Assembly (NCBI GenBank): GCA_030681835.1
Contig: JAUXRN010000075.1
Coordinates: 1,561-65,560 of the forward strand
Length of the DNA: 64,000 nucleotides
Direction: 5' to 3'
Source: Actinomycetota bacterium
GTDB taxonomy: Bacteria; Actinomycetota; Actinomycetes; S36-B12
Made by a program: the position numbers and the translations under genes. Each line of letters begins with the position of its first letter. Position 1 is the first letter of the stretch. Below the pieces are notes generated by a model. It did no database searches, was not told the origin of the DNA, and saw only the letters and a program-made list of their open reading frames with translations. This document shows, in pieces, positions 16,623 through 33,226 of the stretch.

Positions 16623-16699
16623 GGCCAGGTAGCTCAGTTGGTACGAGCGTCCGACTGAAAATCGGAAGGTCGGCGGTTCGACCCCGCCCCTGGCCACCA
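16623..16699 (+). tRNA. tRNA-Phe (anticodon GAA), with encoded CCA
   Basis: Acceptor GGCCAGG/CCTGGCC, anticodon stem TCCGA/TCGGA with loop CTGAAAA, T-arm GGTTCGACCCC, and 3' ACCA. Confidence 0.92.
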
Positions 16700-16766
16700 C
16701 TCGAACCCCTGAAAGCCTTGCCAATGCTTATTCTTAGGTGAGGAACAAGGTCGGAGTTAGTGCGAC

Positions 16767-16831
16767 TTGACTGTGCTAAACCTGTGCGAATTGTCGTTTG
16801 GCAATCCAAGACTGTGCTAATGCTGTGCTGA
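16767..16831. repeat. Cluster of short direct repeats (GACTGTGCTAA x2 plus two partial CTGTGC copies) in the noncoding island edge
   Basis: GACTGTGCTAA occurs at 16769-16779 and 16810-16820. CTGTGCGAA occurs at ~16782 and CTGTGCTGA at ~16824. The local sequence is much more AT-rich than the genome. Confidence 0.6.
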
Positions 16832-16976
16832 GGACCTGTCGTCGAATGCACCTGCTCGGAGTCACCTCCGACCGACCAAGTCAGCCAGATACCCGCTGAG
16901 CCGCGGCTCGACCTTCTCCACGATCCAGGGATTAGGCCTGATCTGCACCGACCAACCGTGACCCCGGCCGCAACCG

Positions 16977-16997
16977 CCAGCATTCAGTGAATGCTGG
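16977..16997. repeat. Perfect palindrome CCAGCATTCA-G-TGAATGCTGG (10-bp arms)
   Basis: Read directly from the sequence. It lies ~70 nt downstream of the methyltransferase stop (minus strand). There is no U-tract, so it is not called as an intrinsic terminator. Confidence 0.6.
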
Positions 16998-17069
16998 CGA
17001 CCAGCCCTTGAGACGCCCGGGTTCGGGATGCGTGCCTCCGCTGTGTTCTGCACCTCGTCTCGTTGCCGC

Positions 17070-19088
17070 CTACGGCTGGAGCAGGCTGCGCCGTTCTTCA
17101 CTGAGACGAGCGATGCTTAGTGCGGCGTGATTCATGGCATCGACCGCGCTGCGGTACTGCTCCCCGATCTCGGCCAGAGCCTTCGCATGGTCCGTGCCCT
17201 TAACCGGCACAGGAATCAGAACCTCCGCCAGTTCAGTAGTGCGAATCCGGTTGTGCGATGAAGACGTCCCAGAAGTGAGGCTGCCAATCTGCCTTTGCAC
17301 AACTTCCGATTGGAGTAGGAAAGCCAAGCTGTAGAGCGTTAGGGGTGACCCAGCCTTCATCCTCATGATCTCGAACTCACTCGAACAGGTCATTGGCCTG
17401 CCTAGATCCGGAACGACGCAGATCCGGGGAATACGAGGGTTGATCTTCGACAGGAGTAGATCTCCGGCCGTCACCCGAGGACCTGGCGTCTTCGGCCTGT
17501 AGGCGAGAGCGGCATGCACATCCAGAAACCCCTCCCCCAGCACATGCTTGACCGAGATACAGGCTGGCTCGACTTCGCTGGCGCTGTGCTTCGAGGGTCG
17601 ACTGCCGACGAAATCCACCAGGAGATCAAGCTTGGTCATGTCGACACTGGCATCGGCACCTTGCGACCCAATGATTGCCACCCGCTCCGCGCTGAAGTGT
17701 CTCGGCGTCCATGCACCTCGCCAGATTTCACGGTTCGGCACCACGACAGCAGAGGGTCGCTCAAGCAGCACGGTGGCCGCCCTCACTCCCGCTTCCATGT
17801 CCTGCGCCTCGATGGCGTCCAGCAGCGCCGGCAACTCGTTCACACCAACAGGCTTCTTGACCAACACCCCCTTGCGGGAGGAGACATCGAAGCCGAGCTC
17901 CTCGACGACACCCATGACCGCTGGCTCGTCGCCTCGCGCCTTGCCCTTCTGCAGATACAGAACGACCGTCTTGGTCCGAGTACCAGCCTGCGCGAAAGTG
18001 GTCGCGGGTAGCTCGACCAGGGCGCGCAGCCTCACCTCGTCTTGCAGGTGGCGCCGCAACTTCGCAGCCATGCCCCGCGCCGACACGACGCCGTCTGGGA
18101 GGACGATCAGCATGCGCCCCCCTTCCCTCAGGAACTCGAGGTTTCGCTCCAGGAAGAGCAGCTCAGAATCGATCACACCACGATCCACCGTGGACGAGAG
18201 GAATGGTGCTGTGTTCCTTCCCTGCCTGACCTCCTCCGCCATGATTCGCGCCCCGAACGGCGGGTTGGTCAGAATCACATCCACCTTGCCGATCCAGTCG
18301 TCGAGAGGCGTGCCTTCCAGCGCCGAGTCGCCTTGCGAGACCTGATGGCCTCCAGCCTCGAACATCTGCATGTTGATCGTGCACAGGCGAACCATCCGAT
18401 CGACTTTGTCCTGGGCAACGAGTTGCACTTGCTCCCGCGCCAGCCAGCCCACCTGAGGTGCCAGGTCGTAGACAGTCGTCAGGAATGAACCCACTCCGCA
18501 AGTCGGATCCATGAAGACCCAGTCCCTGTCCGCGACCTGGGTCAGCTCGTCAGTGCGGCCAAGGTCTTCGAGAACCAATCGCACCATGAACTGAGTGACC
18601 TCTGGCGGTGTCAGGTACTGCGCATCCTCGATGTTCCCTCTGAAGTTGTCCCGAACGAAGTGACCGAATGCCTCGTTCAGCAGATCAAACGGATGACCCG
18701 CCTGACGCACGGCGAACGCATCGTCGACTGCCTGCCGGACGACGGCGACAAGTTGGCGGGCCAGTTGCTCGTCACCCGCACGCAGCACGAGGCTCGGCGA
18801 TGGACCGAAGATCGAACGACCTTCTCGATCGCGGTACTCCGGAAGTTCGGCGGTCTTCCGGAAGGCCACTCCTAGCCGTTCCAGAAGATCTGCGTCCTCA
18901 GCGTCCGGGAATTCGATGGGGTTCCCGGCCTTCTCGGCGACGTAGGTTGCGAACATCTTGGCGATCTCATCGAGCTTCGCATTGGAGTCGTCCAGACGCC
19001 CGCTTCGATGAAAGACCTCCCGGAGTTCACCCAGGCCGGAGTACACGCGGCCGTAAGCTTCAGCTAGCTGCCGATCCTCTGCCTGCAT
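17070..19088 (-). CDS. N6-adenine DNA methyltransferase (gamma class) fused to a single HsdS-like target-recognition domain
   Basis: ATG 19088 is preceded by GGAGGAG. It has motif I FMDPTCGVGSFL and motif IV ILTNPPFG. The C-terminal ~200 aa resembles a type I S-subunit TRD (LLSKINPRIPRI..., SEFEIMR..., SSSHNRIRTTELAEVLIPVP). Confidence 0.85.
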   Translation of the reverse strand: MQAEDRQLAEAYGRVYSGLGELREVFHRSGRLDDSNAKLDEIAKMFATYVAEKAGNPIEFPDAEDADLLERLGVAFRKTAELPEYRDREGRSIFGPSPSLVLRAGDEQLARQLVAVVRQAVDDAFAVRQAGHPFDLLNEAFGHFVRDNFRGNIEDAQYLTPPEVTQFMVRLVLEDLGRTDELTQVADRDWVFMDPTCGVGSFLTTVYDLAPQVGWLAREQVQLVAQDKVDRMVRLCTINMQMFEAGGHQVSQGDSALEGTPLDDWIGKVDVILTNPPFGARIMAEEVRQGRNTAPFLSSTVDRGVIDSELLFLERNLEFLREGGRMLIVLPDGVVSARGMAAKLRRHLQDEVRLRALVELPATTFAQAGTRTKTVVLYLQKGKARGDEPAVMGVVEELGFDVSSRKGVLVKKPVGVNELPALLDAIEAQDMEAGVRAATVLLERPSAVVVPNREIWRGAWTPRHFSAERVAIIGSQGADASVDMTKLDLLVDFVGSRPSKHSASEVEPACISVKHVLGEGFLDVHAALAYRPKTPGPRVTAGDLLLSKINPRIPRICVVPDLGRPMTCSSEFEIMRMKAGSPLTLYSLAFLLQSEVVQRQIGSLTSGTSSSHNRIRTTELAEVLIPVPVKGTDHAKALAEIGEQYRSAVDAMNHAALSIARLSEERRSLLQP

Positions 19089-19181
19089 GGCAACCGCTCC
19101 TCCGATGACAATCTCTATTGGCAATAATGATGGCCACTCTAGCGGAGTGGTCTGACAGCGCTGACGACCCAGAATCGACAC
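19089..19181. promoter_or_regulatory. Divergent promoter/operator region between the M gene and the C-R operon (candidate C-box elements)
   Basis: It contains the inverted repeat TATTG-G-CAATA (19116-19126). It also contains CTGAC-AGCG-CTGAC with the core palindrome CAGCGCTG (19152-19165). The operator role is inferred only. Confidence 0.3.
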
Positions 19182-19397
19182 ATGGGGGTAACCGAGGACG
19201 TAGCCGCAAGAATCCGCAACGCTCGACTGCGTCGAGGCCTGTCGCAGGCGTCGGTAGCCAAGCTGGCAGGACTCTCCCGAACGCACTACGGCCAATTGGA
19301 GCGCGGCCAGTCATCGCCGACCGTCGTGACTCTCGAGGCGGTCGCCAACGCACTCGGCGAATCACTGCCTGAGCTCCTTGGGGAGCGTGCATCATGA
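19182..19397 (+). CDS. Controller (C) protein, XRE-type HTH regulator of the R-M system
   Basis: 71-aa HTH (LSQASVAKLAGLSRTHYGQLERGQSSPT). It lies immediately upstream of the nuclease gene, overlapping it by 4 nt, and is divergent from the methyltransferase. Confidence 0.75.
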   Translation: MGVTEDVAARIRNARLRRGLSQASVAKLAGLSRTHYGQLERGQSSPTVVTLEAVANALGESLPELLGERAS

Positions 19398-20041
19398 CGA
19401 GCGCACCCGAAGAACGCCTCGCGGAGGCCTTGCGACTCCTGGATCACCACCGTGAGGCATTTCATGCAGTGGTGGATGTCGCCTCGGAGACGGGGCACCC
19501 GGTTCCAATGGACACACGTGGTTGGTCCCAGATCATCGTGAGTGTCCTGACCGGCGTCCACGGGCTGGATCGCAAGAAAGGCGCCGATCTTGACGACGGT
19601 TCGGACGTCAAGGGCGCCAACACGTGGCACGCCATAGACACCCCACGGTTCAACGGAGTGGTCAAGGCTGGCACCCAGGCCGACGCATCCGACAGCATCG
19701 CCAGCCTCGACGCCATGCCCTACCTGTACTTCGTTCTCTGGGACACGTCGCCTCGTGGCCGCGATCGATGCCGAATCTGGGTCGTGCGTCCTGACACTGA
19801 TCCCGTGTTCCGGGCCATGGCTGATGACTGGTACGAGCAGCGGGCCATCGGCACCATCAAGTCGAACAACTTCCAGCTGCACCCTCCTCGGGGCAAGGAC
19901 TCTGACGAGATTCGGAACAGTTGCGGCAACTTGTTGTACCCGCTCTTCTTTGCCGCCGAGGTGGGTTCCAGCGACGAGTACGAGATCACAACCTACGATC
20001 CCGCTGTCCTAGTAAGCGGCATTTGTCGTCCATCTCGCTAG
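19394..20041 (+). CDS. Putative type II restriction endonuclease (PD-(D/E)XK-like)
   Basis: ATGA overlap with the C gene. It has the candidate catalytic motif GADLDDGSDVKGAN (D...D-x-K). The position is classic for the R gene of a C-R operon. The family was not identified. Confidence 0.6.
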   Translation: MTSAPEERLAEALRLLDHHREAFHAVVDVASETGHPVPMDTRGWSQIIVSVLTGVHGLDRKKGADLDDGSDVKGANTWHAIDTPRFNGVVKAGTQADASDSIASLDAMPYLYFVLWDTSPRGRDRCRIWVVRPDTDPVFRAMADDWYEQRAIGTIKSNNFQLHPPRGKDSDEIRNSCGNLLYPLFFAAEVGSSDEYEITTYDPAVLVSGICRPSR

Positions 20042-20203
20042 AGCGCCCGGGCGACTGCTATGTGTGCCCATCGTCCAGCTTGCACGACAACGGCCTCCCC
20101 AATTAGCAGTGAACGGACCAGTTCAGGGCTGACCCCGGTACTGCTGCTGGAGGCGGCCGCTCGTTGCTGTTCGGACGCCAAATCCGTCCACGCTCTGGGT
20201 CCT

Positions 20204-20515
20204 TCAGGGTGCGGATTGTGGGTCGACGATGGGTAACTCCACGTCAACTGTCAAGATGCCGCGATCCACGTAGCCGCCCCACTCCATCGCACTCATTCCG
20301 GATTCCACATACGCTTCACCAACAACTTGCACGGTGCCGTCGGGGAGCGTGGTCGCCCCGGTGATCTCATAGCCACCGATGTCGCCGTTGTCGTCGAAGA
20401 ACGCCTCGACGGCGGCCGTCACCTGTTCCTGGGTCACTCGGACGCGGACGGCGAAGGGTATCGCCATTAGGTCGGAGTCCGCGCCCGACTCTTCCTCGCC
20501 ACCTTCAACGTTCAT
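20204..20515 (-). CDS. Small acidic hypothetical protein (103 aa), downstream partner of the 410-aa gene
   Basis: ATG 20515 is preceded by a strong RBS (AGGAGGAG, 6-7 nt upstream). The protein is Asp/Glu-rich with no recognisable motif. Confidence 0.65.
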   Translation of the reverse strand: MNVEGGEEESGADSDLMAIPFAVRVRVTQEQVTAAVEAFFDDNGDIGGYEITGATTLPDGTVQVVGEAYVESGMSAMEWGGYVDRGILTVDVELPIVDPQSAP

Positions 20516-20693
20516 GTCGTCTCCTCCTACTTCACCTTGTCATCGAATTGAGCCCGGTCCACGCCGTTTGTGGCCGCGAGGCTTTCAAGTATTCAGCTAT
20601 CTCCTGCCAGATTCCGGGCAGACGATCACCTGTTCGTCTTGCTTCCAAAGCGCCTCCGCAGGTACTCGCCGCGTTGCCTAACTGGGATTCTGC

Positions 20694-21926
20694 CTATGAA
20701 TGTGGCATCGGAGTGGGACTGACAAGGTCGTCGAGTTGTACGAGCCACTGTGTTCCGAGTGCCGCTGCGGCTCGCTGCTCGAGTTCGGACACCTGCGAAG
20801 TGCGCTGCCAGTCCCAGGCTTGGTTGAGGTCATCGCGGCTGGGTTGCCGAGGCGTTCGGGGCCGCTTCAACCCGGCCCGGTCACACAGGAGCGCCAGCGA
20901 TAGGTCACCGAAAACCCATGTGCCGCGGAGACCACCAAAGCCGTAGGGCGAGGAATAGTAGACCCCGCCGTCGAGAAAGGCGTGGCACTCCGAGATCGAG
21001 GAGTACATGCTGACACCGGAACTGTTGTTGACCGCCTGCAGGTTCGCCAAAGCCATGAACACCCGCTGGAGGATGGCTTCGTCGGCGTTCGCTTTGAACG
21101 CGTACACGTGTGAGGCCCCACGGGAGCGCGAGAAGGCATGTGACCACAGCAACACGGGGCGATCCTCCCTGAGGAATCCCTCGGCAGTGAGATCCCGGGC
21201 AAGGATGCCCTCACCACGGAAGGCGCAAGCTTGATCGAGCGTGACGCCTCTCTGGGCGTAGCCGGTCGCGGACAGGTAGCTGAATCCCGCTTCGACCCAC
21301 GGCTCGACCTGCTGGGGATTCGCGAAGCCCTTCGACAGAATGCCGGCATCCTTTGCGGCAAAGCCCGCGTCACGCCACGAGAGCCAGACCGGCAGGGCCC
21401 AACCGAAGTGGTCGAACCACTCCTCGACGGCGTAGTCACCGAAGCCGGCGTCGAATGCAGCAAGGATCTGGTCCGCGGTAAGCATCGTCTGCAGAAGACG
21501 GCTACTCACCGTCACCTTGCCGCCACGGTTCGCCCAGTCGACGGCGAGCCGGGCGAACTCGTCCAACGAGTAGTGCTCGATCCAGGCGAGGTGGTCCCGG
21601 TTGAGGTGGTTCACCCCTAGTTCGCGCAATTGCATGGCGGCAACGGGCTCAATCAACGAGTCGTACATGGTCGCGTCCCACCTCATGCGGTCGCCCGGCG
21701 GGGGCATGCCCGCGGCTAGCCATTCCTTCGCCCTATCGATGCTCATTCCGCTTCCACGGCAGTGATTGGCGCTGTTCAAGGTGAAGCCGATGTCCCGCCA
21801 CGCCGATGCCTCTTCAGGGGCGTAGTCCATGCGGCCCCACTGGAACGCTTCGTCCTCGTCGAAACCGGCCGCCGCCCACGCGGCGAGTTCCTGCGGTGTC
21901 TGTTTGGACGTGTAGGTGCTGCCCAC
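20694..21926 (-). CDS. Hypothetical 410-aa protein with degenerate W-x-x-A-G-F repeats; no recognisable domain
   Basis: GTG 21926 has a G-rich RBS. Repeated motifs are LAAWAAAGF, ASAWRDIGF, AKEWLAAGM, ILAAFDAGF, LSWRDAGF and VEPWVEAGF. It is divergent from the Nudix gene. Confidence 0.7.
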   Translation of the reverse strand: MGSTYTSKQTPQELAAWAAAGFDEDEAFQWGRMDYAPEEASAWRDIGFTLNSANHCRGSGMSIDRAKEWLAAGMPPPGDRMRWDATMYDSLIEPVAAMQLRELGVNHLNRDHLAWIEHYSLDEFARLAVDWANRGGKVTVSSRLLQTMLTADQILAAFDAGFGDYAVEEWFDHFGWALPVWLSWRDAGFAAKDAGILSKGFANPQQVEPWVEAGFSYLSATGYAQRGVTLDQACAFRGEGILARDLTAEGFLREDRPVLLWSHAFSRSRGASHVYAFKANADEAILQRVFMALANLQAVNNSSGVSMYSSISECHAFLDGGVYYSSPYGFGGLRGTWVFGDLSLALLCDRAGLKRPRTPRQPSRDDLNQAWDWQRTSQVSELEQRAAAALGTQWLVQLDDLVSPTPMPHS

Positions 21927-22070
21927 GGTCGTTGCCCCTTCCCCCGGGTCCCACTATGTACCGGTCGTCTGGCGGTCTCCTGCTGATTCGCCCGGAGGGA
22001 GCCGATGCCCACACAGCACAGCCCGCCCTGTCGCACTGAATCTGTAAGCTCCAGGGACGAGGGAGGCACG

Positions 22071-22466
22071 GTGACAAGGCGGATTCGCGTGGTGGGGGCC
22101 GCGGTTCTCCACGACGGACTCATACTCTGCGCTCAACGTGGCCCACAAGGGAACCTGGCTGGCCTTTGGGAGTTCCCAGGAGGAAAGATCGAGCCAGGGG
22201 AATCACCCGCAGTTGCGCTTGAGCGCGAGATACGCGAGGAACTGGACTGCTCGGTCGAGGTTGGGCGCGAGATCACAACGACGACCCACGAGTACGACTT
22301 CGGTGTCGTCACTCTGACGACGTTCTACTGTCGCCTCGTGGCCGGTACGCCGACGCTAACCGAGCACGTAGCCCTCAAGTGGCTGCGACCAGACGAGCTC
22401 GACACCATCACTTGGGCGCCTGCCGACCTCCCGGCGGTGGCCATGATCCAGGCGGATCACGCCTGA
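22071..22466 (+). CDS. MutT/NudG-like Nudix hydrolase ((deoxy)nucleoside triphosphate pyrophosphohydrolase)
   Basis: GTG 22071 follows GGGAGG. Nudix box GGKIEPGESPAVALEREIREELD, preceded by LWEFPGG. The stop overlaps the helicase start (TGATG). Confidence 0.85.
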   Translation: MTRRIRVVGAAVLHDGLILCAQRGPQGNLAGLWEFPGGKIEPGESPAVALEREIREELDCSVEVGREITTTTHEYDFGVVTLTTFYCRLVAGTPTLTEHVALKWLRPDELDTITWAPADLPAVAMIQADHA

Positions 22467-25366
22467 TGGAAAGCGATCTCATCTGGGCCGATCGCTTCAA
22501 CCGCGACATCCAGTACGGCTATGTGGGAAGCCAGGCAGCGGGGCCAGGGCACTACAACCCAAGGCTGGTGCTCAACCAGGACGGGCGAACCGTCGAACAC
22601 GCACTCGTCGAGGAACTCGAGCTAGGCGGCGACTTCACGTTCTCGGTTGCCTTCATCTCCGCCGGAGCCATAGCGCAGCTGAAGCAGCACCTGCTTGAAC
22701 ACAGGGGCAATGGGAGAATCGTCACGTCAGACTTCCTCCGCTTCAACAATCCGCGGGCCTTCGCAGAGCTACTGAACCTCAAGAAGCACCTGGGCATCGA
22801 CGTCAGACGCCACGCAGCCGAGGGGTTCCATCCCAAGGGCTACATATTCCAACGGCCCCGGAGTGTTACTGCCATGATCGGCAGCTCGAACCTCACGAAC
22901 CGGGCTCTATCACAGAACCACGAATGGAATCTCAAAGTCTCGGCGGCCGCGGGCAGTGACCTTGCCGCACAGCTGATGAGGCTTCTCGACGATCAGATCG
23001 CCGCGTCCGAGCCACTGACTCAAGAGTGGATCGACGAATACGCGGCCACGTACGTCGCGCCCCCGAGTCGCGAAATAGGAAGGACCACGCTTCCTGGAGA
23101 GCCTTCGCTCGGTTCCCCAATCGAGCCCAACAGCATGCAGCAAGATGCTCTTCTCGCTCTGGATCTCGCCAGGGCACAGGGAAACAAACGCGCGATCGTC
23201 ATCTCGGCCACCGGAACAGGGAAGACGATGCTCTCCGCGCTGGACGTGCGTTCAGTAGACCCGAAACGCATGCTCTTTGTCGTCCACCGAGAGCAGATTC
23301 TTGCTCGCACGATTCGGGAGTATCAGCGGGTACTGCAAGGTCCTCCCACGAACTATGGCCTGCTCACCGGAACAAGCAAGCAACTGGACCGACGCTACGT
23401 CTTTGCCACCATCCAGACGCTGTCGCAAGAGGCCACTCTCACTTCCTTGCCATACGACGCCTTCGACTACGTCATCATCGACGAGGCGCATCGAGCTGGG
23501 GCTGCTTCGTATCAGCGAGTGATCGAGAGGCTCCGGCCTAGCTTTCTGCTTGGTATGACCGCAACGCCGGAACGAACTGACGGGTTCAACGTCTTTGAAC
23601 TCTTCGACTACAACGTCCCGTACGAGATTCGACTCAGCAAGGCGCTCGAAGCAGAGATGCTGTCGCCTTTCCACTACTACGGAATCTCCGACGTGGTCTA
23701 CGAAGGCGCCGGTACGACCACAGATGACACACCTCTTCACCTGTTGATTTCCCCCGAACGAGTGGAACATCTCATTCGAGCACTGGAGCTTTACGGTCAG
23801 GCAGGGGTGGCTCCACGAGGCCTGATCTTCTGTAGCCGCCGGGAGGAAAGCCACAGACTCGCCGAAGAGCTGAACCAACGCTCCCTGCGGGGCCGGCCTC
23901 TGCGAACAGTCGCACTTACCGGCGAGGATTCCATCGAAACCCGCGAACGCCGGGTCGCCCAACTGGAGGCTGGAGAGCTCGACTACATCCTCACTGTCGA
24001 CGTATTCAACGAAGGCGTCGATATCCCGAGCCTGAACCAAGTCGTCATGCTTCGGCAGACGCAGTCCGCAATCGTGTTCGTTCAGCAGTTGGGTCGAGGT
24101 TTGCGCCTCGCCGAGGGGAAGGAGTACCTGGCGGTCATTGACTTCATCGGCAACTACACCAACAACTTCCTCATTCCGATCGCACTGTTTGGCGATGACT
24201 CCCTTAACCGCGAGTCGCTTCGAGAGCGCTTGAATGAGGCAGTTGAAGGGGGCGCTCTCCCGGGCCTGTCAAGCGTCAGCTTCGACGAGATCGCTCGTGA
24301 CCGAATCCTGGAGTCGATCAAGCAGACGCAGCTCGACAGCATGGCGAACCTGAAGAACGCCCTCCTAGCGATGAGAAACCGAGTGGGCGGTGTGCCCAAA
24401 CTCTGGGACTTCTACCGCTTCCGCTCAGTGGATCCGGTGCTACTGGCCACGAAGAAGGAGCATTACCCCGCGCTAGCGCAATCCCTGCTTCGAGTCGATT
24501 CCATGCTTAGCTCGAGTGAATCGCGGGCTCTGGATCTCCTCTCACACGAGGTTCTCGCAAGCAAGCGCATGCACGAGTTCGTCCTCCTTGAGCTGCTCCT
24601 CGCGACTGGGGCCGTCACTTTGTCCGATATCCGCGATGCATTCGCCTTGGCTGACATTCCAAGCGATCCCTCACACATCACAAGCGCCGTCGACACGCTC
24701 ACGTTGACGGGTTACGCGCAGGCAGATGTCACCCGGTATCAGACCGGCATCGCGGAACGCCATGACGACACGGTGCGACTTACTGAGGAGTTTCGAGTCG
24801 CGTACGCCGAATCATCCGCCCTGAGTGACGCTGTTGCTGATCTCGTGAAGACCGGCAAGGAGCTCACTCGCGACCGCTATGAGGCGGGTCTTCCGTTCAC
24901 GTCGGGTATGCAGTACTCCCGACGAGATGCCGCCCGCATCGTCGGATGGCCTCGCGCCTTTGCCTCGACCATCTATGGCTATAAGACCGACGAGGCCACC
25001 GGCGTTTGTGCGATCTTTGTGACGCTTCACAAGTCCAGCGAAATCGACGCGAGCACAGCGTATGAAGACCAGTTGCTGGACCCGTCAACGATGCGGTGGT
25101 TCTCCAGAAGTAGGCGGACTCTGGAGAGTAGGGAGGTGAGGCTGGTCGTGGACGGCTTGGTTCACGTGCACGTATTCGTCAAGAAGGACGACGCAGAGGG
25201 CAGCGACCACTACTACCTGGGGCCAGCCACGGCAACCGAAGCCGAGGAAACGACCATGCCGGACGGCGACGGAAGGCCCCTGTCGGTGGTGACCATGCTG
25301 CTCAAATTCGACCAACCGATCAAACAGGGCCTATTCGACTACTTCCATCCGCTCCACGTTGGCTGA
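22466..25366 (+). CDS. PLD-family nuclease domain + SF2 (DEAH) helicase + large C-terminal domain (DUF3427-type architecture)
   Basis: PLD HKD motif (FHPKGYIF...IGSSNLT). Helicase motifs ATGTGKT (I), IIDEAHR (II), MTATPER (III) and QQLGRGLR (VI). The C-terminal ~330 aa carry no motif I can name. ATG 22466 was chosen over the upstream run-on. Confidence 0.85.
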   Translation: MESDLIWADRFNRDIQYGYVGSQAAGPGHYNPRLVLNQDGRTVEHALVEELELGGDFTFSVAFISAGAIAQLKQHLLEHRGNGRIVTSDFLRFNNPRAFAELLNLKKHLGIDVRRHAAEGFHPKGYIFQRPRSVTAMIGSSNLTNRALSQNHEWNLKVSAAAGSDLAAQLMRLLDDQIAASEPLTQEWIDEYAATYVAPPSREIGRTTLPGEPSLGSPIEPNSMQQDALLALDLARAQGNKRAIVISATGTGKTMLSALDVRSVDPKRMLFVVHREQILARTIREYQRVLQGPPTNYGLLTGTSKQLDRRYVFATIQTLSQEATLTSLPYDAFDYVIIDEAHRAGAASYQRVIERLRPSFLLGMTATPERTDGFNVFELFDYNVPYEIRLSKALEAEMLSPFHYYGISDVVYEGAGTTTDDTPLHLLISPERVEHLIRALELYGQAGVAPRGLIFCSRREESHRLAEELNQRSLRGRPLRTVALTGEDSIETRERRVAQLEAGELDYILTVDVFNEGVDIPSLNQVVMLRQTQSAIVFVQQLGRGLRLAEGKEYLAVIDFIGNYTNNFLIPIALFGDDSLNRESLRERLNEAVEGGALPGLSSVSFDEIARDRILESIKQTQLDSMANLKNALLAMRNRVGGVPKLWDFYRFRSVDPVLLATKKEHYPALAQSLLRVDSMLSSSESRALDLLSHEVLASKRMHEFVLLELLLATGAVTLSDIRDAFALADIPSDPSHITSAVDTLTLTGYAQADVTRYQTGIAERHDDTVRLTEEFRVAYAESSALSDAVADLVKTGKELTRDRYEAGLPFTSGMQYSRRDAARIVGWPRAFASTIYGYKTDEATGVCAIFVTLHKSSEIDASTAYEDQLLDPSTMRWFSRSRRTLESREVRLVVDGLVHVHVFVKKDDAEGSDHYYLGPATATEAEETTMPDGDGRPLSVVTMLLKFDQPIKQGLFDYFHPLHVG

Positions 25367-25495
25367 AGGGTCAGGTACCGAAGCCGGCTTCCGGGCCGAA
25401 AGACGCGAGGCGGCCTTCCGGATCCGTGTGCCACTCCCGTGCGTCGGACTCGGGGGCTAACGTGACCAGCAGCACTTAGCCTGCGCGGGGGTTCC

Positions 25496-26596
25496 ATGTC
25501 GACACTGCACGTAACAGACGCTCGAGCCGTCGAGAAAGCCCTCGACGAATTTGACCAAATAGGCCGCGACGAGTTCCTTCGCCGATATCGGTTTGGCAGG
25601 GCCCGCGCCTACTTCATTGTTCGCAACGGCAAGAAGTACGACTCCAAGGCCGTACTCGGTGCTGCGCATATGTTCCAGTTCGGCCGAGCCCTGCCACACG
25701 AGGAGTTCAGCGGAGGCGACGCCGGCGCAGCCCGCGAGCTTCGCCAACTCGGATTCACCGTGGTCGGGCCCGAAAGCACTCCGGTCCAAGCCGAGGTGAG
25801 GCCACAGACATTCATCCTTACCTGGAACTCGCTCAAGTGGGACTGGAACACGGGTGGCCGCCCGAACGCCATCGAGGCGACCGCGCTAGGTGAGCGGGTG
25901 CCGGACCGCTGGGCCACGGGAGTCCGCAGCGGAGGTATCCGGCCAGGTGACCGCGCGTTCCTATTGCAGCAGGGACCCCTTCGCGGCCTAGTCGCATCGG
26001 GCTGGTTCACCTCTGAGGTCTTCCAGGAACCGCACTGGGACGGAGCCCCGAGCAAGTTCGCCAACTACGCGAGCGTGTCTTGGGACAGAGTCTTGTCAGA
26101 CAACGCGATGCTCGATATCGACGACATCAAGGATCAAGTCCCCGGGTTGAATTGGGACCGTATCCAAGGCTCGGGGGTTCAGCTGCCGGCAGACGGGGCG
26201 CTCCAACTCGAGGCGCTGTGGACGGGCGATGAGCCGTTCACCAGCCCTGAGGAGGAGGGCGCCGAAACTCTCACTGAGGGGTCCCTCGCCAGGGTCACTG
26301 TGAATCGCTACGAGCGAAACCCGGCCGCGCGAGCTGCATGCCTCGCACACTACGGATCAGTGTGCGCCGTATGCGACATGTCATTCGGCGACCGTTACGG
26401 AAGCATCGGCGAGGGCTTCATACACGTGCATCACCTAAGGGAGATTTCGACGATCGGCCAGGAGTACACGATCGATCCCATCGTGGACCTGCGCCCGGTG
26501 TGCCCAAACTGCCACGCAATGCTGCACAAGCAGACACCGGCCTTCACTCCCGAGGAGCTCAGACGCTTACTCCTCGCAGAGGATCACGAGTTATGA
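25496..26596 (+). CDS. McrA-like type IV (modification-dependent) HNH endonuclease with a PUA/EVE-like middle domain
   Basis: C-terminal HNH (CAVCDMSF...IHVHHLREIS...PVCPNCHAMLH). The middle domain is EVE/PUA-like (FILTWNSLKWDW...GDRAFLLQQG...GLVASGWF). The N-terminal module DEFDQIGRDEFLRRYRFGRARAYFIVRNGKKYDSKAVLGAAH is common at the N-termini of type IV enzymes. Confidence 0.8.
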   Translation: MSTLHVTDARAVEKALDEFDQIGRDEFLRRYRFGRARAYFIVRNGKKYDSKAVLGAAHMFQFGRALPHEEFSGGDAGAARELRQLGFTVVGPESTPVQAEVRPQTFILTWNSLKWDWNTGGRPNAIEATALGERVPDRWATGVRSGGIRPGDRAFLLQQGPLRGLVASGWFTSEVFQEPHWDGAPSKFANYASVSWDRVLSDNAMLDIDDIKDQVPGLNWDRIQGSGVQLPADGALQLEALWTGDEPFTSPEEEGAETLTEGSLARVTVNRYERNPAARAACLAHYGSVCAVCDMSFGDRYGSIGEGFIHVHHLREISTIGQEYTIDPIVDLRPVCPNCHAMLHKQTPAFTPEELRRLLLAEDHEL

Positions 26597-26747
26597 GGGA
26601 GCGTCTCGGACCCTGTGGACAACGGCTCTTTTCTGCCCGCACTTCTGTCCTTTCTTTGTGGTTCTCAGTGCGTCTTGGTGAGTCTGGGTGCGCGAAAACT
26701 TCTCAATACCAACAACTACCAGAGTCCGATTCTCGAGGGGGAGGGTC

Positions 26748-26789
26748 TGAGAATTGGAAGGGGCTGCGTTTCGCCCACCCCTGGCCACC
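26748..26789 (+). repeat. Degenerate direct repeat of the tRNA-Phe 3' half (att remnant / pseudo-tRNA fragment)
   Basis: tgagaattggaaggggctgcgtttcgcccacccctggccacc aligns with tRNA-Phe tgaaaatcggaaggtcggcggttcgaccccgcccctggccacc. The terminal 12 nt are identical. Confidence 0.65.
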
Positions 26790-26916
26790 GCTCTCCCCTC
26801 ACGAGGCCTCTCTGAGGCCGGGCCCTACGCATCGCCGGTCGCCTCCCCCGTGCGGCTATACCGGCACCCGGGTCAATCGGCTAGACGCTGCCGGCAGGTT
26901 CGGTCGGTGTCGGCTG

Positions 26917-29634: not shown

Positions 29635-32337
29635 CTAGATGAGCCCCCGCTCGCGGGCGCGGGCGACGGCGGCGCGCCGGCTGGTGACGTCCAGCTTGGT
29701 GAAGATCCGCTTGGTGTGGGTCCGCATGGTGTTGTGGGAGATGAACAGCTCGCGCGCGATCTGCGGGCCGGTCAGCTCGGTGTCGAGCATCCGCAGCACG
29801 GCCCGCTCCCGCTCGCTGAGCGCATCCGCGCCCGCAGGTCCCGGGTGCTTGCGTGCGGCCCGCGGCCGGGCCGCCCGGGCACGGACCCGGTCGGCCTTCT
29901 CAGCCTCTGGTCCCGGCAGCGCGGCCTCGGCCAGCAGGGGCTCGAGCACGCCCCAGTCCGAGGCGAACAGGTCCGCGAACGCCTGCGGCTCGGGCAAGCG
30001 CACCAAGGCGTCCGCGAGCACGCCCGCGGCTCCCGTGGCGTCACCCATGCGGTCGCGGATCAGCGCCTCGCAGACGGCGATCTCGAGGAGGCTCCCGAGT
30101 CGTCCGGCTTCAGCGGCGTGCTCCCTGAGCGCCTGGAGCCGCTCGGCCTGCTCTGCGAGGATTCCGGCTCCGCCTGATGGCGCGAGGGCGAGCTGCAGCC
30201 GGACGCGCGTGAGGTCCTCGTACTCGCGGAGGTACTCGGACCTGCCGCCACGGGCGCCGGCCCCTGCCTCCGCCCACCGCACGGCCTCGGCGATGTTTCC
30301 GCGCCGAAGGTCGATGCGGGCCCTGATCGCGGGAATCGGGCGGACCTCGGGCAGGAAGAGCGGCCGGTACATCGCCTCGGCCTGCTCGAGGCAGGCCACC
30401 GCGGCGTCGTAGTCGCCCTCAGCGGCGCGCAGGTCAGCCAATGCCACGTACCAGCGGAAGCCTCCCTCGCCGATGCCCTCGGGGTCGCTCAGCCGTGCAG
30501 CGTCATCGAGGTGGCGCCGGGCCGACTCGGGATCCCCCGCGCCGGTCGCGAGCTGGCTCGCCGCCACGTGCAGGTAGGCCGCCGCCCGGTCGGCCTGCGC
30601 GCCATGCTGCTCGGCACGCGCGAGCGCGGCTGCGTTCAGGCGTGCTGCCTCGCTCGGGCAGCCGGAGACGACCCACATGTCCGCCAGCGCCACCGTGCTG
30701 ATCAGCTCGTCGACGATGTTCCCGCCTGCGTGGAGGCTGGCCAGCGCCTGGGCGAAGACGGTCCGCGCCTCGACGATGTCGCCGACCGACCAGGCCGCGA
30801 GCCCGAGGAAGCCCGCTGCCGAGCCGCGGGCGAAGTGGTCATCGGGACCGGCGAGGTCGAGGGCGCGAGCGGCCTGCTCGCGCATCGTGGCCACGTCGCC
30901 CCTGGCCTGCGCGATCGCCGCGCGGTACGTGGCGATCGTCGCCGGGAGGGTCCGCAGCGCGTCGGTCTGCGCCCATTGCGAACGGGCGTCCTCGCCTGCG
31001 CGGGACAGGGCCACCTCGGCCTCGGCGAACCGGCGGTCGGCGGAATCGAGGTCCCCGGCGACCAGGCTCATGTGGCCGGAGTAGACCGCCAGTACGGGAC
31101 GGGCGGTGATCTCCTCCGCCGGCAGAGCGGCCAGCCAGTCCGCGAGCAGAGACTCGCGCCGCTCCCGGAGGATGGCGGGGATCGCCAGCTCCACCAGGAA
31201 GGCGGCGCGCGGGACGTCGCCCGCGGCGAACGCGTGCGCGATGGCCTCGTCGAGCAGCCCCTTCGCCTCGAGCCACGCGCTCGCGCGGCGGTGCAGGTCC
31301 GCTGCCAGGCCCGGGTGGTCGCTGAGGAGGGTGGCGCGGAGGACGTCGGCGAACAGATGGTGGTAGCGGTACCACTCGCGGCGGTCATCCAGCGGGACGA
31401 GGAAGAGGTTGCTGCGCTCGAGGGAGGCGAGGCGGTCCTTGCCGTTCGACTGCCCGGTGACGGCGTCGCACAAGGGTCCGCTGAAGGTGTCCAGCAGGCT
31501 GGTGCGCAGGAGGAACTCCCGCACGTCGTCAGGCTGGCGCGCGAGCACCTCGTCGACCAGGTAGTCGACGACGTACCGGTCATCCCCGGCGAAGCTGGCG
31601 ATGAAGGAGTGGGCATCCTCGCGTCCTTGGACGGAGAGCGCGGCGAGCTGGAGTGCCGCGATCCAGCCTTCCGTGCGCGCTTCCAGGGACGCGACGTCGG
31701 ACGGCGCCAGGGCCAGCCCCATCGAGTCGTTGAGGTAGCTGACGGCCTCGTCGAGGGTGAACCGCAGGTCGGTCACGCGGATCTCCATCAGCTGGCCCCG
31801 TGCCCGCATCTGCGCAAGCGGCAGCCCCGGATCCGCCCGGGTCGCCAGGATGAGATGCGCGTTGCCGGGCAGGTGCTCGACGAAGAACTCGACGCTGGAG
31901 CGGACGTCCGACGCCTCGACCAGGTGGAGGTCGTCGAGGACGATCGTCAGGGGCGTGGCGAGGCGGTCGATGTCGTTGAGCAGGGACGTGACGACCGATT
32001 CGGTGGACGAGGCGGGAAGTGCGAGGAGCGCCAAGGCCTGGCTGCCGACGCCGTGCGCTGCCGCGTCGACCGCCGATGCCAGGTACGTCCAGAAGGCCAC
32101 GGGATCGTTGTCGCGCGACGTCAGAGACACCCACGCGACGGCGTGCGACTGCAGGCGGGCCGACTCGGCCCACTGGCTGACGAGGGTGGTCTTGCCGAAG
32201 CCGGCCGGAGCGGAGACAAGGGTCACGGGGACGCTGGCGCTCCGGCTCAGCTGGTCCAGCAACCGCTGGCGCGCGATCGCCTCGGGCCGGAGCGAAGGGA
32301 TGCGGAGCTTGGTCTCCAGCAGTGTCATGGCCATCAT
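29635..32337 (-). CDS. LAL/MalT-type large ATP-binding LuxR-family transcriptional regulator
   Basis: Walker A SAPAGFGKTTL, a TPR-like central region, and a C-terminal LuxR HTH (LSERERAVLRMLDTELTGPQIARELFISHNTMRTHTKRIFTKL). The start was set at ATG 32337 (MMAMTLLETKLRIP). Confidence 0.9.
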   Translation of the reverse strand: MMAMTLLETKLRIPSLRPEAIARQRLLDQLSRSASVPVTLVSAPAGFGKTTLVSQWAESARLQSHAVAWVSLTSRDNDPVAFWTYLASAVDAAAHGVGSQALALLALPASSTESVVTSLLNDIDRLATPLTIVLDDLHLVEASDVRSSVEFFVEHLPGNAHLILATRADPGLPLAQMRARGQLMEIRVTDLRFTLDEAVSYLNDSMGLALAPSDVASLEARTEGWIAALQLAALSVQGREDAHSFIASFAGDDRYVVDYLVDEVLARQPDDVREFLLRTSLLDTFSGPLCDAVTGQSNGKDRLASLERSNLFLVPLDDRREWYRYHHLFADVLRATLLSDHPGLAADLHRRASAWLEAKGLLDEAIAHAFAAGDVPRAAFLVELAIPAILRERRESLLADWLAALPAEEITARPVLAVYSGHMSLVAGDLDSADRRFAEAEVALSRAGEDARSQWAQTDALRTLPATIATYRAAIAQARGDVATMREQAARALDLAGPDDHFARGSAAGFLGLAAWSVGDIVEARTVFAQALASLHAGGNIVDELISTVALADMWVVSGCPSEAARLNAAALARAEQHGAQADRAAAYLHVAASQLATGAGDPESARRHLDDAARLSDPEGIGEGGFRWYVALADLRAAEGDYDAAVACLEQAEAMYRPLFLPEVRPIPAIRARIDLRRGNIAEAVRWAEAGAGARGGRSEYLREYEDLTRVRLQLALAPSGGAGILAEQAERLQALREHAAEAGRLGSLLEIAVCEALIRDRMGDATGAAGVLADALVRLPEPQAFADLFASDWGVLEPLLAEAALPGPEAEKADRVRARAARPRAARKHPGPAGADALSERERAVLRMLDTELTGPQIARELFISHNTMRTHTKRIFTKLDVTSRRAAVARARERGLI

Positions 32338-32458
32338 GCTCCCGCGCTGTCGCCGGCCTTCACCCGGAAGCAGCCACCATAGTTGCTCATCGGGCGGGCC
32401 TGGCCGTTCCACCGTGGCAGTAGCCTGCGAGGGCGGTGCGCAGACTGACGGAGAGTCC

Positions 32459-33226
32459 ATGAGCAGGCGAGCGATCCGCGAGGCCATCGCCGTCGGCGGA
32501 GCGTGCGTGGTCATGCTGGCGGGAGTCATCTCAGGCGCTGCACCCGCCCAGGCGCGCGAGCTCGAGGCCGTCGACGTCACCAGCGCCACCACCCGCAACC
32601 TGTGGGTGGCGCCGCTGTGGAGGCAGTACGGAGCCGGGGTCTTCCGGCAGGAGGACTACCAGGCCTCCCCCGAGGGTCGCTTCGTGTACACCATGGAAGT
32701 CGGCGAGATGTGGGACAACGGGAGGCGATGCGTCCTCACCCGCAATGGCACGGTGATCATCGACGGGAAGTGCAAGGACAGCATCCCGTGGGGCGGCCTG
32801 GAGCTGCCCGGATCCGGCAAGTACTCCTTGGCATTCAACGGCCGCCGGGTCGCATCGTGGACGTTCACGATGCCGACGGACGTCCCGACGCCGCTGGCGC
32901 CGGCCGCGTGCGCGATCACCTCGTTCAAGCCCGGCCTCGTCAGCGAACTCGGGCCGACCTTCCAGGTCACCACGAACGGGCTGTGCAGCGGCGGCTACTG
33001 GTACTACCAGGCCGACTACCCCGGCGGCGGGCAGGCGTACCGGCGCTTCCGGCTGCCCGCCGACGGCGTCTTCCTCGTCCGGGTCCTCATCTCCAATACT
33101 GATGCCGTGACCCTGACCGTCGCTTTCCTGCCCCGCGACTACCAGGTGCTGACCGCCTCGTCGCTGGCGACGCCCGCGGGGGCGACGCCGGCGTGGCGTG
33201 CGGTGCCCCAGCAGATCGGCTCCTGA
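32459..33226 (+). CDS. Secreted hypothetical protein
   Basis: ATG 32459 follows GGAGAG. It has a signal peptide ending AQA and is divergent from the LuxR gene. Confidence 0.7.
   Translation: MSRRAIREAIAVGGACVVMLAGVISGAAPAQARELEAVDVTSATTRNLWVAPLWRQYGAGVFRQEDYQASPEGRFVYTMEVGEMWDNGRRCVLTRNGTVIIDGKCKDSIPWGGLELPGSGKYSLAFNGRRVASWTFTMPTDVPTPLAPAACAITSFKPGLVSELGPTFQVTTNGLCSGGYWYYQADYPGGGQAYRRFRLPADGVFLVRVLISNTDAVTLTVAFLPRDYQVLTASSLATPAGATPAWRAVPQQIGS

Follow-up and report, generated by a model that had tools for sequence, protein, structure and literature searches.

The window studied here, a stretch of 64,000 nucleotides (nt) from a contig of an actinobacterium, carries two overlapping genes on its forward strand, the first of which encodes a small Nudix hydrolase and the second a large protein combining a PLD-type nuclease with a superfamily 2 (SF2) helicase-like ATPase. 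A first-pass annotation of this DNA had described a Nudix gene of 131 amino acids (aa) ending in TGATG, the ATG of which opens a 966-aa protein, and this arrangement was borne out by the open reading frame (ORF) listing and by the sequence; the nuclease, helicase and Nudix motifs it had named (HPKGYIF...GSSNLT through QQLGRGLR) were all found in the translations. The pair is, judging from the comparisons presented below, an actinobacterial orthologue of the SauUSI plus Nudix system that has already been described, and not a new system. The positions of the genes, of their domains and of the surrounding features are listed in Table 1.

The large protein almost certainly belongs to the SauUSI family of Type IV restriction endonucleases. 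It matched the SauUSI protein of known structure (PDB 7CLG) with an E-value of 2.3e-203 (aa 10-959 against 7-950) and the PADLOC model mREase_IV PDLC03658 with an E-value of 2e-202 (10-960 against 7-951 of 953). In the crystal structure of SauUSI (PMC7913695), residues 1-191 form the PLD nuclease, two RecA-like ATPase domains follow, residues 618-805 make up the coupler, and residues 806-953 are the SRA-fold domain that recognizes the target; the window protein resembles Staphylococcus aureus SauUSI (SAUSA300_2431) end to end in its PLD nuclease, SF2 ATPase, coupler, and SRA/DUF3427 region. The Pfam matches include PLDc_2 (2e-8, aa 84-170), ResIII/DEAD (aa 219-370; ResIII 6e-36), and Helicase_C (aa 440-548; 2e-12), and the C-terminal part was found to match DUF3427 (2e-68, aa 692-960), as had been suspected. 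The residues H122 and K124, which correspond to the catalytic H119 and K121 of SauUSI, and every ATPase motif are invariant in 12 actinobacterial homologues. In the alignment to 7CLG, which was indexed by hand, the SRA pocket residues Y831, F841, I842, D858, and W868 of SauUSI correspond to Y839, F851, V852, D868, and W878, and the wedge position, Met-829 in SauUSI, is occupied by Tyr-837. Five of the six SauUSI residues are preserved, and the pocket reading 5-methylcytosine (5mC) is, on this alignment, preserved as well. Based on homology with SauUSI, ATP-dependent cutting of DNA containing 5mC or 5-hydroxymethylcytosine (5hmC) is predicted with high confidence for the window nuclease. The family assignment gives substance to the initial suggestion that a helicase-nuclease attacks foreign DNA, the predicted target being specifically modified DNA.

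Table 1. Features of the Nudix-nuclease pair and of the island in which it lies, with their positions in the window
Feature	Position	Strand	Basis
Shine-Dalgarno-like GAGGGAGG before GTG 22071 of the Nudix gene	22059..22066	+	Read from sequence
Predicted Nudix (MutT/NudG-like) nucleoside triphosphate (NTP) pyrophosphohydrolase, 131 aa, SauUSI-linked subfamily PADLOC PDC-S07	22071..22466	+	Pfam, PADLOC, PDB matches
Shine-Dalgarno-like AGGCGGA, 9 nt before the nuclease ATG	22450..22456	+	Sequence
TGATG stop/start overlap, 1 nt shared	22464..22468	+	Sequence
Predicted SauUSI-family ATP-dependent Type IV (5mC/5hmC-dependent) restriction endonuclease, 966 aa	22466..25366	+	PDB 7CLG, PADLOC mREase_IV
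PLD/HKD nuclease domain, aa 1-195, with H122 and K124 in HPKGYIF, and GSSNLT	22466..23050	+	Pfam PLDc_2; aligns to SauUSI 1-191
SF2 helicase-like ATPase/translocase core, aa 219-565, with GTGKT, DEAH, TATPER, QQLGRGLR	23120..24160	+	Pfam
DUF3427, aa 692-960, spanning part of the coupler plus the predicted SRA-fold target-recognition domain (about aa 814-960)	24539..25345	+	Pfam 2e-68
Low-GC defence island at tRNA-Phe, ~10 kb	16700..26793	.	GC, tRNAs, tRNA-Phe repeat, gene identities
N6-adenine methyltransferase, 741 aa	17070-19295	-	Library matches
MamI-like restriction endonuclease	19394-20041	+	Pfam RE_MamI 7.5e-39
410-aa ORF with four 'W..AG[F/M]' repeat units	20694-21926	-	Sequence
McrA-like HNH enzyme, 366 aa	25496-26596	+	PDB matches

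The SauUSI-like family is large: at least 7974 proteins with E < 1e-20 were obtained in a protein search, and divergent variants of 1040-1060 aa retain both the domain architecture and the Nudix neighbor. The window nuclease shares about 37-40% identity with the staphylococcal SauUSI homologues (tblastn; loci L081-L084). SauUSI recognizes S5mCNGS; the recognition sequence of the window enzyme is not predictable. The S. aureus nuclease gene, too, is immediately preceded on its own strand by a small Nudix gene, SAUSA300_2432. The window differs from the S. aureus locus in its host, a high-GC actinobacterium, in the wedge tyrosine, in the 1-nt overlap between the two genes, and in their location in an island at tRNA-Phe, next to two further restriction systems.

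Two candidate starts are present in the Nudix frame, an ATG at 22005 (153 aa) and a GTG at 22071 (131 aa), as read from the ORF listing and the raw sequence. The GTG was accepted because GAGGGAGG lies just upstream and because the homologues from other genomes, which are about 130 aa long, align from residue 1-3 onward; the longer version, the extension of which is absent from these homologues, was rejected. The gene ends with the TGA at 22464-22466. Its translation contains LWEFPGGKIEPGES...REIREELD, and the Nudix box occupies aa 38-60 (GKIEPGESPAVALEREIREELDC). The protein matched the Pfam families NUDIX_4 (3e-19) and NUDIX (4e-17) as well as the PADLOC candidate PDC-S07 (E 7e-52 over 1-128). 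The best match among solved structures was 5X1X, a 130-aa "mutator MutT protein" (E 3e-41), followed by MutT2 of Mycobacterium smegmatis (2e-25), a Bacteroides "putative CTP pyrophosphohydrolase" (3GWY), and Escherichia coli NudG (2RRK; 3e-23). The 5X1X protein is of the staphylococcal type: its nearest genomic matches are in Staphylococcus species (77% identity), where a SauUSI homologue directly follows the gene; nothing relevant was found in the literature on this PDB entry.

The consensus GX5EX7REUXEEXGU is present in the window protein, apart from the last glycine, a variable position occupied here by Asp. When 112 nuclease-linked members are aligned with 19 unlinked ones, E44, R52, E53, E56, and E57 are invariant, and so are the residues typical of the subfamily (Y75, E98-H99, W104, W115, and A118-D119), all of which occur in the window protein and are identical in linked and unlinked copies. 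The fold, the Nudix box, the Glu of LWEFPGGK, and the Asp of the C-terminal (A/V)PAD are shared with NudG (Orf135) and with mycobacterial MutT2, two pyrimidine (d)NTP pyrophosphohydrolases which, to our knowledge, have not been described as linked to restriction. Tyr-75, in contrast, is an invariant residue of this subfamily's own, and the invariant Trp-115 is common to MutT2 but not to NudG. Asp-119 falls opposite Asp-118 when aligned with NudG and opposite Asn-119 when aligned with E. coli MutT, the latter alignment being taken as a lead. Asn-119 of MutT is the residue that reads 8-oxoguanine, and Asp-118 of NudG matters for substrate recognition; at this base-contact position the subfamily has an invariant Asp, as do NudG and MutT2, instead of the Asn of the 8-oxo-dGTPase MutT. 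Assignment as a MutT (8-oxo-dGTP diphosphatase) equivalog was rejected on account of this residue and of the score obtained (65 bits against the TIGR00586 and NF008044 cut-offs of 97.9 and 148). No NCBIfam model exceeded its own cut-off for either the Nudix or the large protein, hence neither receives an equivalog name. The window Nudix is, as far as its sequence goes, a member of a separate subfamily on the NudG/MutT2 branch, a relative but not an orthologue of NudG, and it looks like an intact and enzymatically competent NTP pyrophosphohydrolase of the cytosine type.

These comparisons also bear on the idea of a role for the Nudix in hydrolysing signalling nucleotides such as (p)ppGpp, or RNA 5' ends in the manner of RppH, which would link restriction to a stress response. 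MutT and NudG reportedly hydrolyse (p)ppGpp, and both names recur in a study of the proteins binding or metabolising (p)ppGpp in E. coli. The sequence offers this idea no specific support, since the closest characterized relatives are (d)NTP pyrophosphohydrolases and the RppH models gave weak matches (E 1e-6 to 1e-3), and we regard it as highly improbable.

At the junction, the nuclease ATG (22466-22468) shares its first base with the last base of the Nudix TGA. Stop/start overlaps were also found in 49 of the 82 non-redundant same-strand pairs from other genomes (-1, -4, -8, -11, and -17 nt, with one outlier at -55), most of the remaining pairs being less than 35 nt apart, although these counts rest on heuristically chosen start codons. 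From the overlap we infer that the Nudix and the nuclease are translationally coupled on one message; a simple promoter and terminator scan of positions 21800-26800 gave nothing above the shuffled expectation and did not define the ends of the operon. Coupling of this kind would fit the near-equal expression of two subunits, and it has been suggested that the Nudix breaks down the pyrophosphate resulting from ATP/dATP hydrolysis (Xu et al., 2011; PMC3141236). The Nudix might thus act on the chemistry of SauUSI itself, by removing an inhibitory nucleotide or pyrophosphate, by tuning the supply of ATP/dATP, or by binding as a regulatory subunit. SauUSI alone is fully active both in vitro and in E. 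coli, however, and its translocase releases inorganic phosphate in assays, not pyrophosphate (PMC7913695; 10.1101/2025.10.16.682607). In some genomes, moreover, the Nudix is unlinked (L122 and L124), and the orphan copies keep the same invariant residues, two observations that argue for a freely acting enzyme. A direct action on the nuclease seems quite improbable.

The neighborhoods of the two genes were analyzed in two scans, adjacency being decided by tblastn. In the first, one-genome-per-species contigs were scanned with an alignment of the helicase as the seed and the best 80 of at least 587 matches were taken, while in the second the 5X1X sequence served as the seed and the best 80 of at least 596 matches were taken. 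A Nudix gene was adjacent to the nuclease gene in 71 of the 75 loci of the first scan that had enough flanking sequence to be assessed, 67 times directly upstream on the same strand and four times just downstream in convergent orientation. These helicase-seeded loci span identities of 83% down to 36% and belong to Actinomycetota, Bacillota, Bacteroidota, Treponemataceae, Methanobrevibacter, and a metagenome-assembled genome of Bathyarchaeota. The four loci without a Nudix gene within 6 kb come from relatives of Staphylococcaceae (Salinicoccus, Jeotgalicoccus, Corticicoccus, and Aliicoccus; L047-L050), and in two of these, Salinicoccus hispanicus and Aliicoccus persicus (L122 and L124), a Nudix of the same subfamily was found on another contig. 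In the Nudix-seeded scan, a PLD-SF2-DUF3427 gene was present beside the Nudix in 57 of the 76 assessable loci and absent in 19. The adjacency is therefore conserved among homologues, and the first-pass view of the two genes as a functional pair finds its support in these counts. The pairing is ancient and nearly obligatory for the nuclease, and the dependence is asymmetric: the nuclease rarely occurs without the Nudix, while the Nudix commonly occurs without the nuclease.

The further one gene of a pair has diverged from its counterpart in the window, the further the other has diverged too, and the correlation is tight (Spearman 0.90, n=71); this fits joint movement of the two genes, but common descent would by itself produce the same pattern. 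The other genes of the island were rejected as members of the cassette, since they do not recur beside the pair: the 410-aa ORF, the McrA-like HNH gene, the MamI-like endonuclease gene, and a 282-aa ORF gave no tblastn matches in 159 loci, and the methyltransferase gave a weak match in only one of them (L055). The module consists of two genes, which probably travel as a unit. In a Nocardioides genome (L003; 4008-4382 and 5609-5992), a single SauUSI-family gene is preceded within a few kb by two copies of the Nudix gene, and the same holds for a Propionicimonas genome (L033; 2431-2814 and 5616-5987).

Alternatively, the Nudix might be a general antimutator or house-cleaning hydrolase that acts on 8-oxo-dGTP, 2-OH-dATP, or (d)CTP in general and merely hitch-hikes beside a restriction gene to which it has no functional link. 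The protein does belong to the MutT/NudG branch, and deletion of nudix in S. aureus Newman did not give the transformable phenotype that deletion of sauUSI gives (Monk et al., 2012). Hitch-hiking would hardly leave the two genes adjacent in 71 of 75 loci drawn from different bacterial phyla and from archaea, and the overlapping junctions, the occurrence of the pair inside mobile islands, and the correlated divergence of its two genes point in the same direction. Together with the Asp found where MutT has its 8-oxoguanine-reading Asn, and with scores below the MutT equivalog cut-offs, these data make this explanation improbable.

The neighbors of the orphan Nudix genes are mixed, including an Lhr helicase, SNF2/DrmD-like proteins, DrmB, PDC-S41, HNH proteins, and unknowns, and no single alternative partner was found among them. 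Orphan copies were observed beside a DrmD/DpdE-like SNF2 helicase (L127), the Schlafen-type helicase PDC-S41 (L144), the DISARM protein DrmB (L151), and an HNH protein (L094); the Nudix therefore stays in defence neighborhoods even without SauUSI. In two Microbacterium genomes, an ORF of 317-322 aa lies directly upstream of the orphan Nudix (L110, 4025-4978; L118, 4021-4989) and is 92% identical between the two. Its YDG...YTGxG motif weakly matches region 301-345 of ScoMcrA (E 0.005), which we take to be part of the SRA domain, and the PADLOC mREase_IV model matches it at 3e-4. This ORF may encode a non-helicase nuclease that reads 5mC and is partnered with the same Nudix; if this is confirmed, the Nudix would be tied to 5mC reading and not to the helicase.

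The defence surroundings of the orphans favor the main rival explanation, according to which the Nudix is a second anti-phage effector that hydrolyses 5-hydroxymethyl-dCTP, 5-methyl-dCTP, or hypermodified precursors made by the phage, while SauUSI cuts whatever modified DNA is made. It would then resemble the dCTP deaminase and dGTPase defences in removing a dNTP which the phage needs; these defences, as far as is known, deplete canonical dNTPs on infection and work alone. PADLOC lists the Nudix on its own as the defence candidate PDC-S07, and the relatives that speak for an anti-phage role are the same cytosine-type enzymes as those that speak for the sanitation of the host's own nucleotide pool, which is considered below. 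An anti-phage role leaves unexplained, however, why the nuclease is almost never found without the Nudix while the Nudix is often found alone, and a constitutive 131-aa enzyme of the house-cleaning type, devoid of any sensor, would have to outrun the phage kinases. Since our literature search found no reported phage phenotype for PDC-S07 either, we consider a second effector unlikely.

The possibility initially raised that the two genes form an unnamed system of new composition was not upheld. The linkage between SauUSI and a Nudix gene was reported for at least 60 genomes by Xu et al. (2011; PMC3141236), who left the function of the Nudix open, and in a 2025 survey of Streptococcus suis, PDC-S07 and the Type IV restriction system were co-localized in 23 of 23 occurrences. 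PADLOC holds models for both genes. SauUSI expressed alone from a plasmid in E. coli lowers the plating of Dcm+ lambda phage to 0.03-0.04%, a restriction of about 2500-fold. The fact that the pair has been described, that SauUSI alone restricts phage, and that the nudix deletion does not give the transformable phenotype of the sauUSI deletion refutes the reading as a new defence system. The window cassette as such is ordinary, one more Type IV cassette of the SauUSI type that standard tools recognize. The interest lies in a loose end now 15 years old, namely the presence of the same small Nudix beside almost every member of the family, in bacteria and archaea alike. SauUSI is also the main barrier to the transformation of staphylococci, and in many actinobacteria and Bacillota its homologues are probably an obstacle to genetic manipulation.

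The mechanism of the nuclease can be carried over from SauUSI with high confidence, by analogy: the SRA domain would flip out a 5mC or 5hmC present in foreign DNA and switch on the SF2 ATPase, and the nuclease dimer would then translocate along the duplex while the N-terminal PLD site cuts repeatedly, so that the DNA is shredded. As regards the Nudix, the explanation we favor, with a probability of about 0.4, is that it hydrolyses 5-methyl-dCTP as well as 5-hydroxymethyl-dCTP, so that the host never writes the target mark of SauUSI into its own DNA. The first-pass annotation had likewise put forward the sanitation or depletion of modified nucleotide pools, which is a reasonable idea. Modified nucleotides might arise from the salvage of degraded methylated DNA, including the DNA shredded by SauUSI, or might be made by an infecting phage. 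With the modified dCTPs removed by the Nudix, the host polymerase would not incorporate 5mC into chromosomal DNA, in which one hemimethylated site would suffice to make the host itself a target of the nuclease. The starvation of phages that build 5mC or 5hmC genomes would be a side benefit. The Nudix would thus be a metabolic safety partner standing outside the cutting machinery.

Several lines of evidence converge on the sanitation of modified dCTP. SauUSI was found to linearise and then fragment DNA carrying one hemimethylated site, its dimers being autonomous (10.1101/2025.10.16.682607), so that a single misincorporated 5mC in a suitable context could be dangerous. This activity, along with the toxicity of SauUSI in Dcm+ E. 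coli, suggests why a safety partner would be needed. The characterized relatives prefer the expected substrate: NudG works best on 5-methyl-dCTP, and MutT2 is reported to hydrolyse 5-methyl-dCTP well (cited in PMC10742078). That the nuclease almost never occurs without the Nudix, whereas the Nudix often occurs alone, is what one would expect if the Nudix makes a hazardous gene safe to carry. In S. aureus, loss of nudix did not give the transformable phenotype, as would be expected of a protein outside the cutting machinery, and the fact that the unlinked copies are indistinguishable from the linked ones at the conserved positions argues for a freely acting enzyme.

Other points weigh against this explanation. 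Strains of S. aureus lacking nudix are viable with an active SauUSI (Monk et al., 2012), and any protection afforded by the Nudix must therefore be conditional. The explanation also presupposes that bacteria turn salvaged 5-methyl-dCMP into the triphosphate at an appreciable rate. The Nudix did not qualify as a NudG equivalog (102 bits against the NCBIfam NF007834 cut-off of 156), and this assignment was rejected. The positions of R72 and R77 of NudG, which we take to be substrate determinants, are occupied by His and Gly in the window protein, so that the specificity of the Nudix cannot be read from its sequence. Both locus samples are skewed toward closer relatives. No published substrate or role was found for any SauUSI-linked Nudix, the searches for one having led only to Xu et al. 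(2011) and Monk et al. (2012), and the structural and single-molecule papers on SauUSI make no mention of it.

A functional analogue of the proposed role may be human DCTPP1, which has been reported to act on 5-methyl-dCTP and the altered levels of which change global DNA methylation (PMC4491611). Unlike the Nudix, DCTPP1 is a dCTP pyrophosphatase of the all-alpha MazG fold, is eukaryotic, and is not coupled to a nuclease. Among the restriction systems, McrBC, McrA/ScoMcrA, and the SRA-HNH enzymes such as TagI resemble the window nuclease in their modification-dependent restriction of 5mC or 5hmC DNA, several of them using SRA-type readers, whereas their motors and nucleases are different. No report of a conserved Nudix partner for McrBC, McrA/ScoMcrA, or the SRA-HNH enzymes was found in the literature, the Microbacterium ORF being the one weak hint in that direction. 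We tentatively suggest that the Nudix may be a dedicated "metabolic immunity" partner, that enzymes of the SauUSI type, which would have no fail-safe of their own, might be carried safely only in its company, and that such a partner may perhaps be shared with other SRA-type restriction enzymes. If so, self would be distinguished from non-self at the level of the nucleotide precursors and not by DNA modification, the tolerance of a nuclease triggered by a single hemimethylated site would be explained, and the sanitation of the precursor pool would join the known ways of avoiding autoimmunity.

The pair lies in a stretch with a GC content of 60-64%, as against 70-75% in the flanks, which starts right after the genes for tRNA-Glu, tRNA-Asp, and tRNA-Phe. 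A degenerate copy of about 50 nt of the 3' half of tRNA-Phe (16623-16702) occurs at 26745-26793, some 10.1 kb downstream, and the two copies bracket the low-GC stretch. No integrase was recognizable in the island, which looks like an old integration at tRNA-Phe with a decayed attachment repeat. The N6-adenine methyltransferase and the MamI-like endonuclease probably form a divergent Type II restriction-modification pair, and the McrA-like protein is probably a second Type IV enzyme: its residues 12-91 match the head domain of ScoMcrA (PDB 5ZMM, 4e-16), its C-terminus is an HNH domain like that of E. coli McrA (6GHC), and its middle part (about aa 100-260) has no domain assignment. Searches of Pfam, PADLOC, and NCBIfam gave no match to the 410-aa ORF. 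None of the genes annotated in the island was recognized as a C5-methyltransferase, the only methyltransferase there being of the N6-adenine type; as N6-adenine methylation would not create SauUSI targets, the systems of the island are expected to be compatible. Just outside the island, at 29635-32598 on the reverse strand, a gene for a 987-aa STAND-type regulator (AAA_16 ATPase, MalT-like TPR, and LuxR/GerE helix-turn-helix) has a GC content at the normal level; it therefore probably belongs to the host and has no connection with the island.

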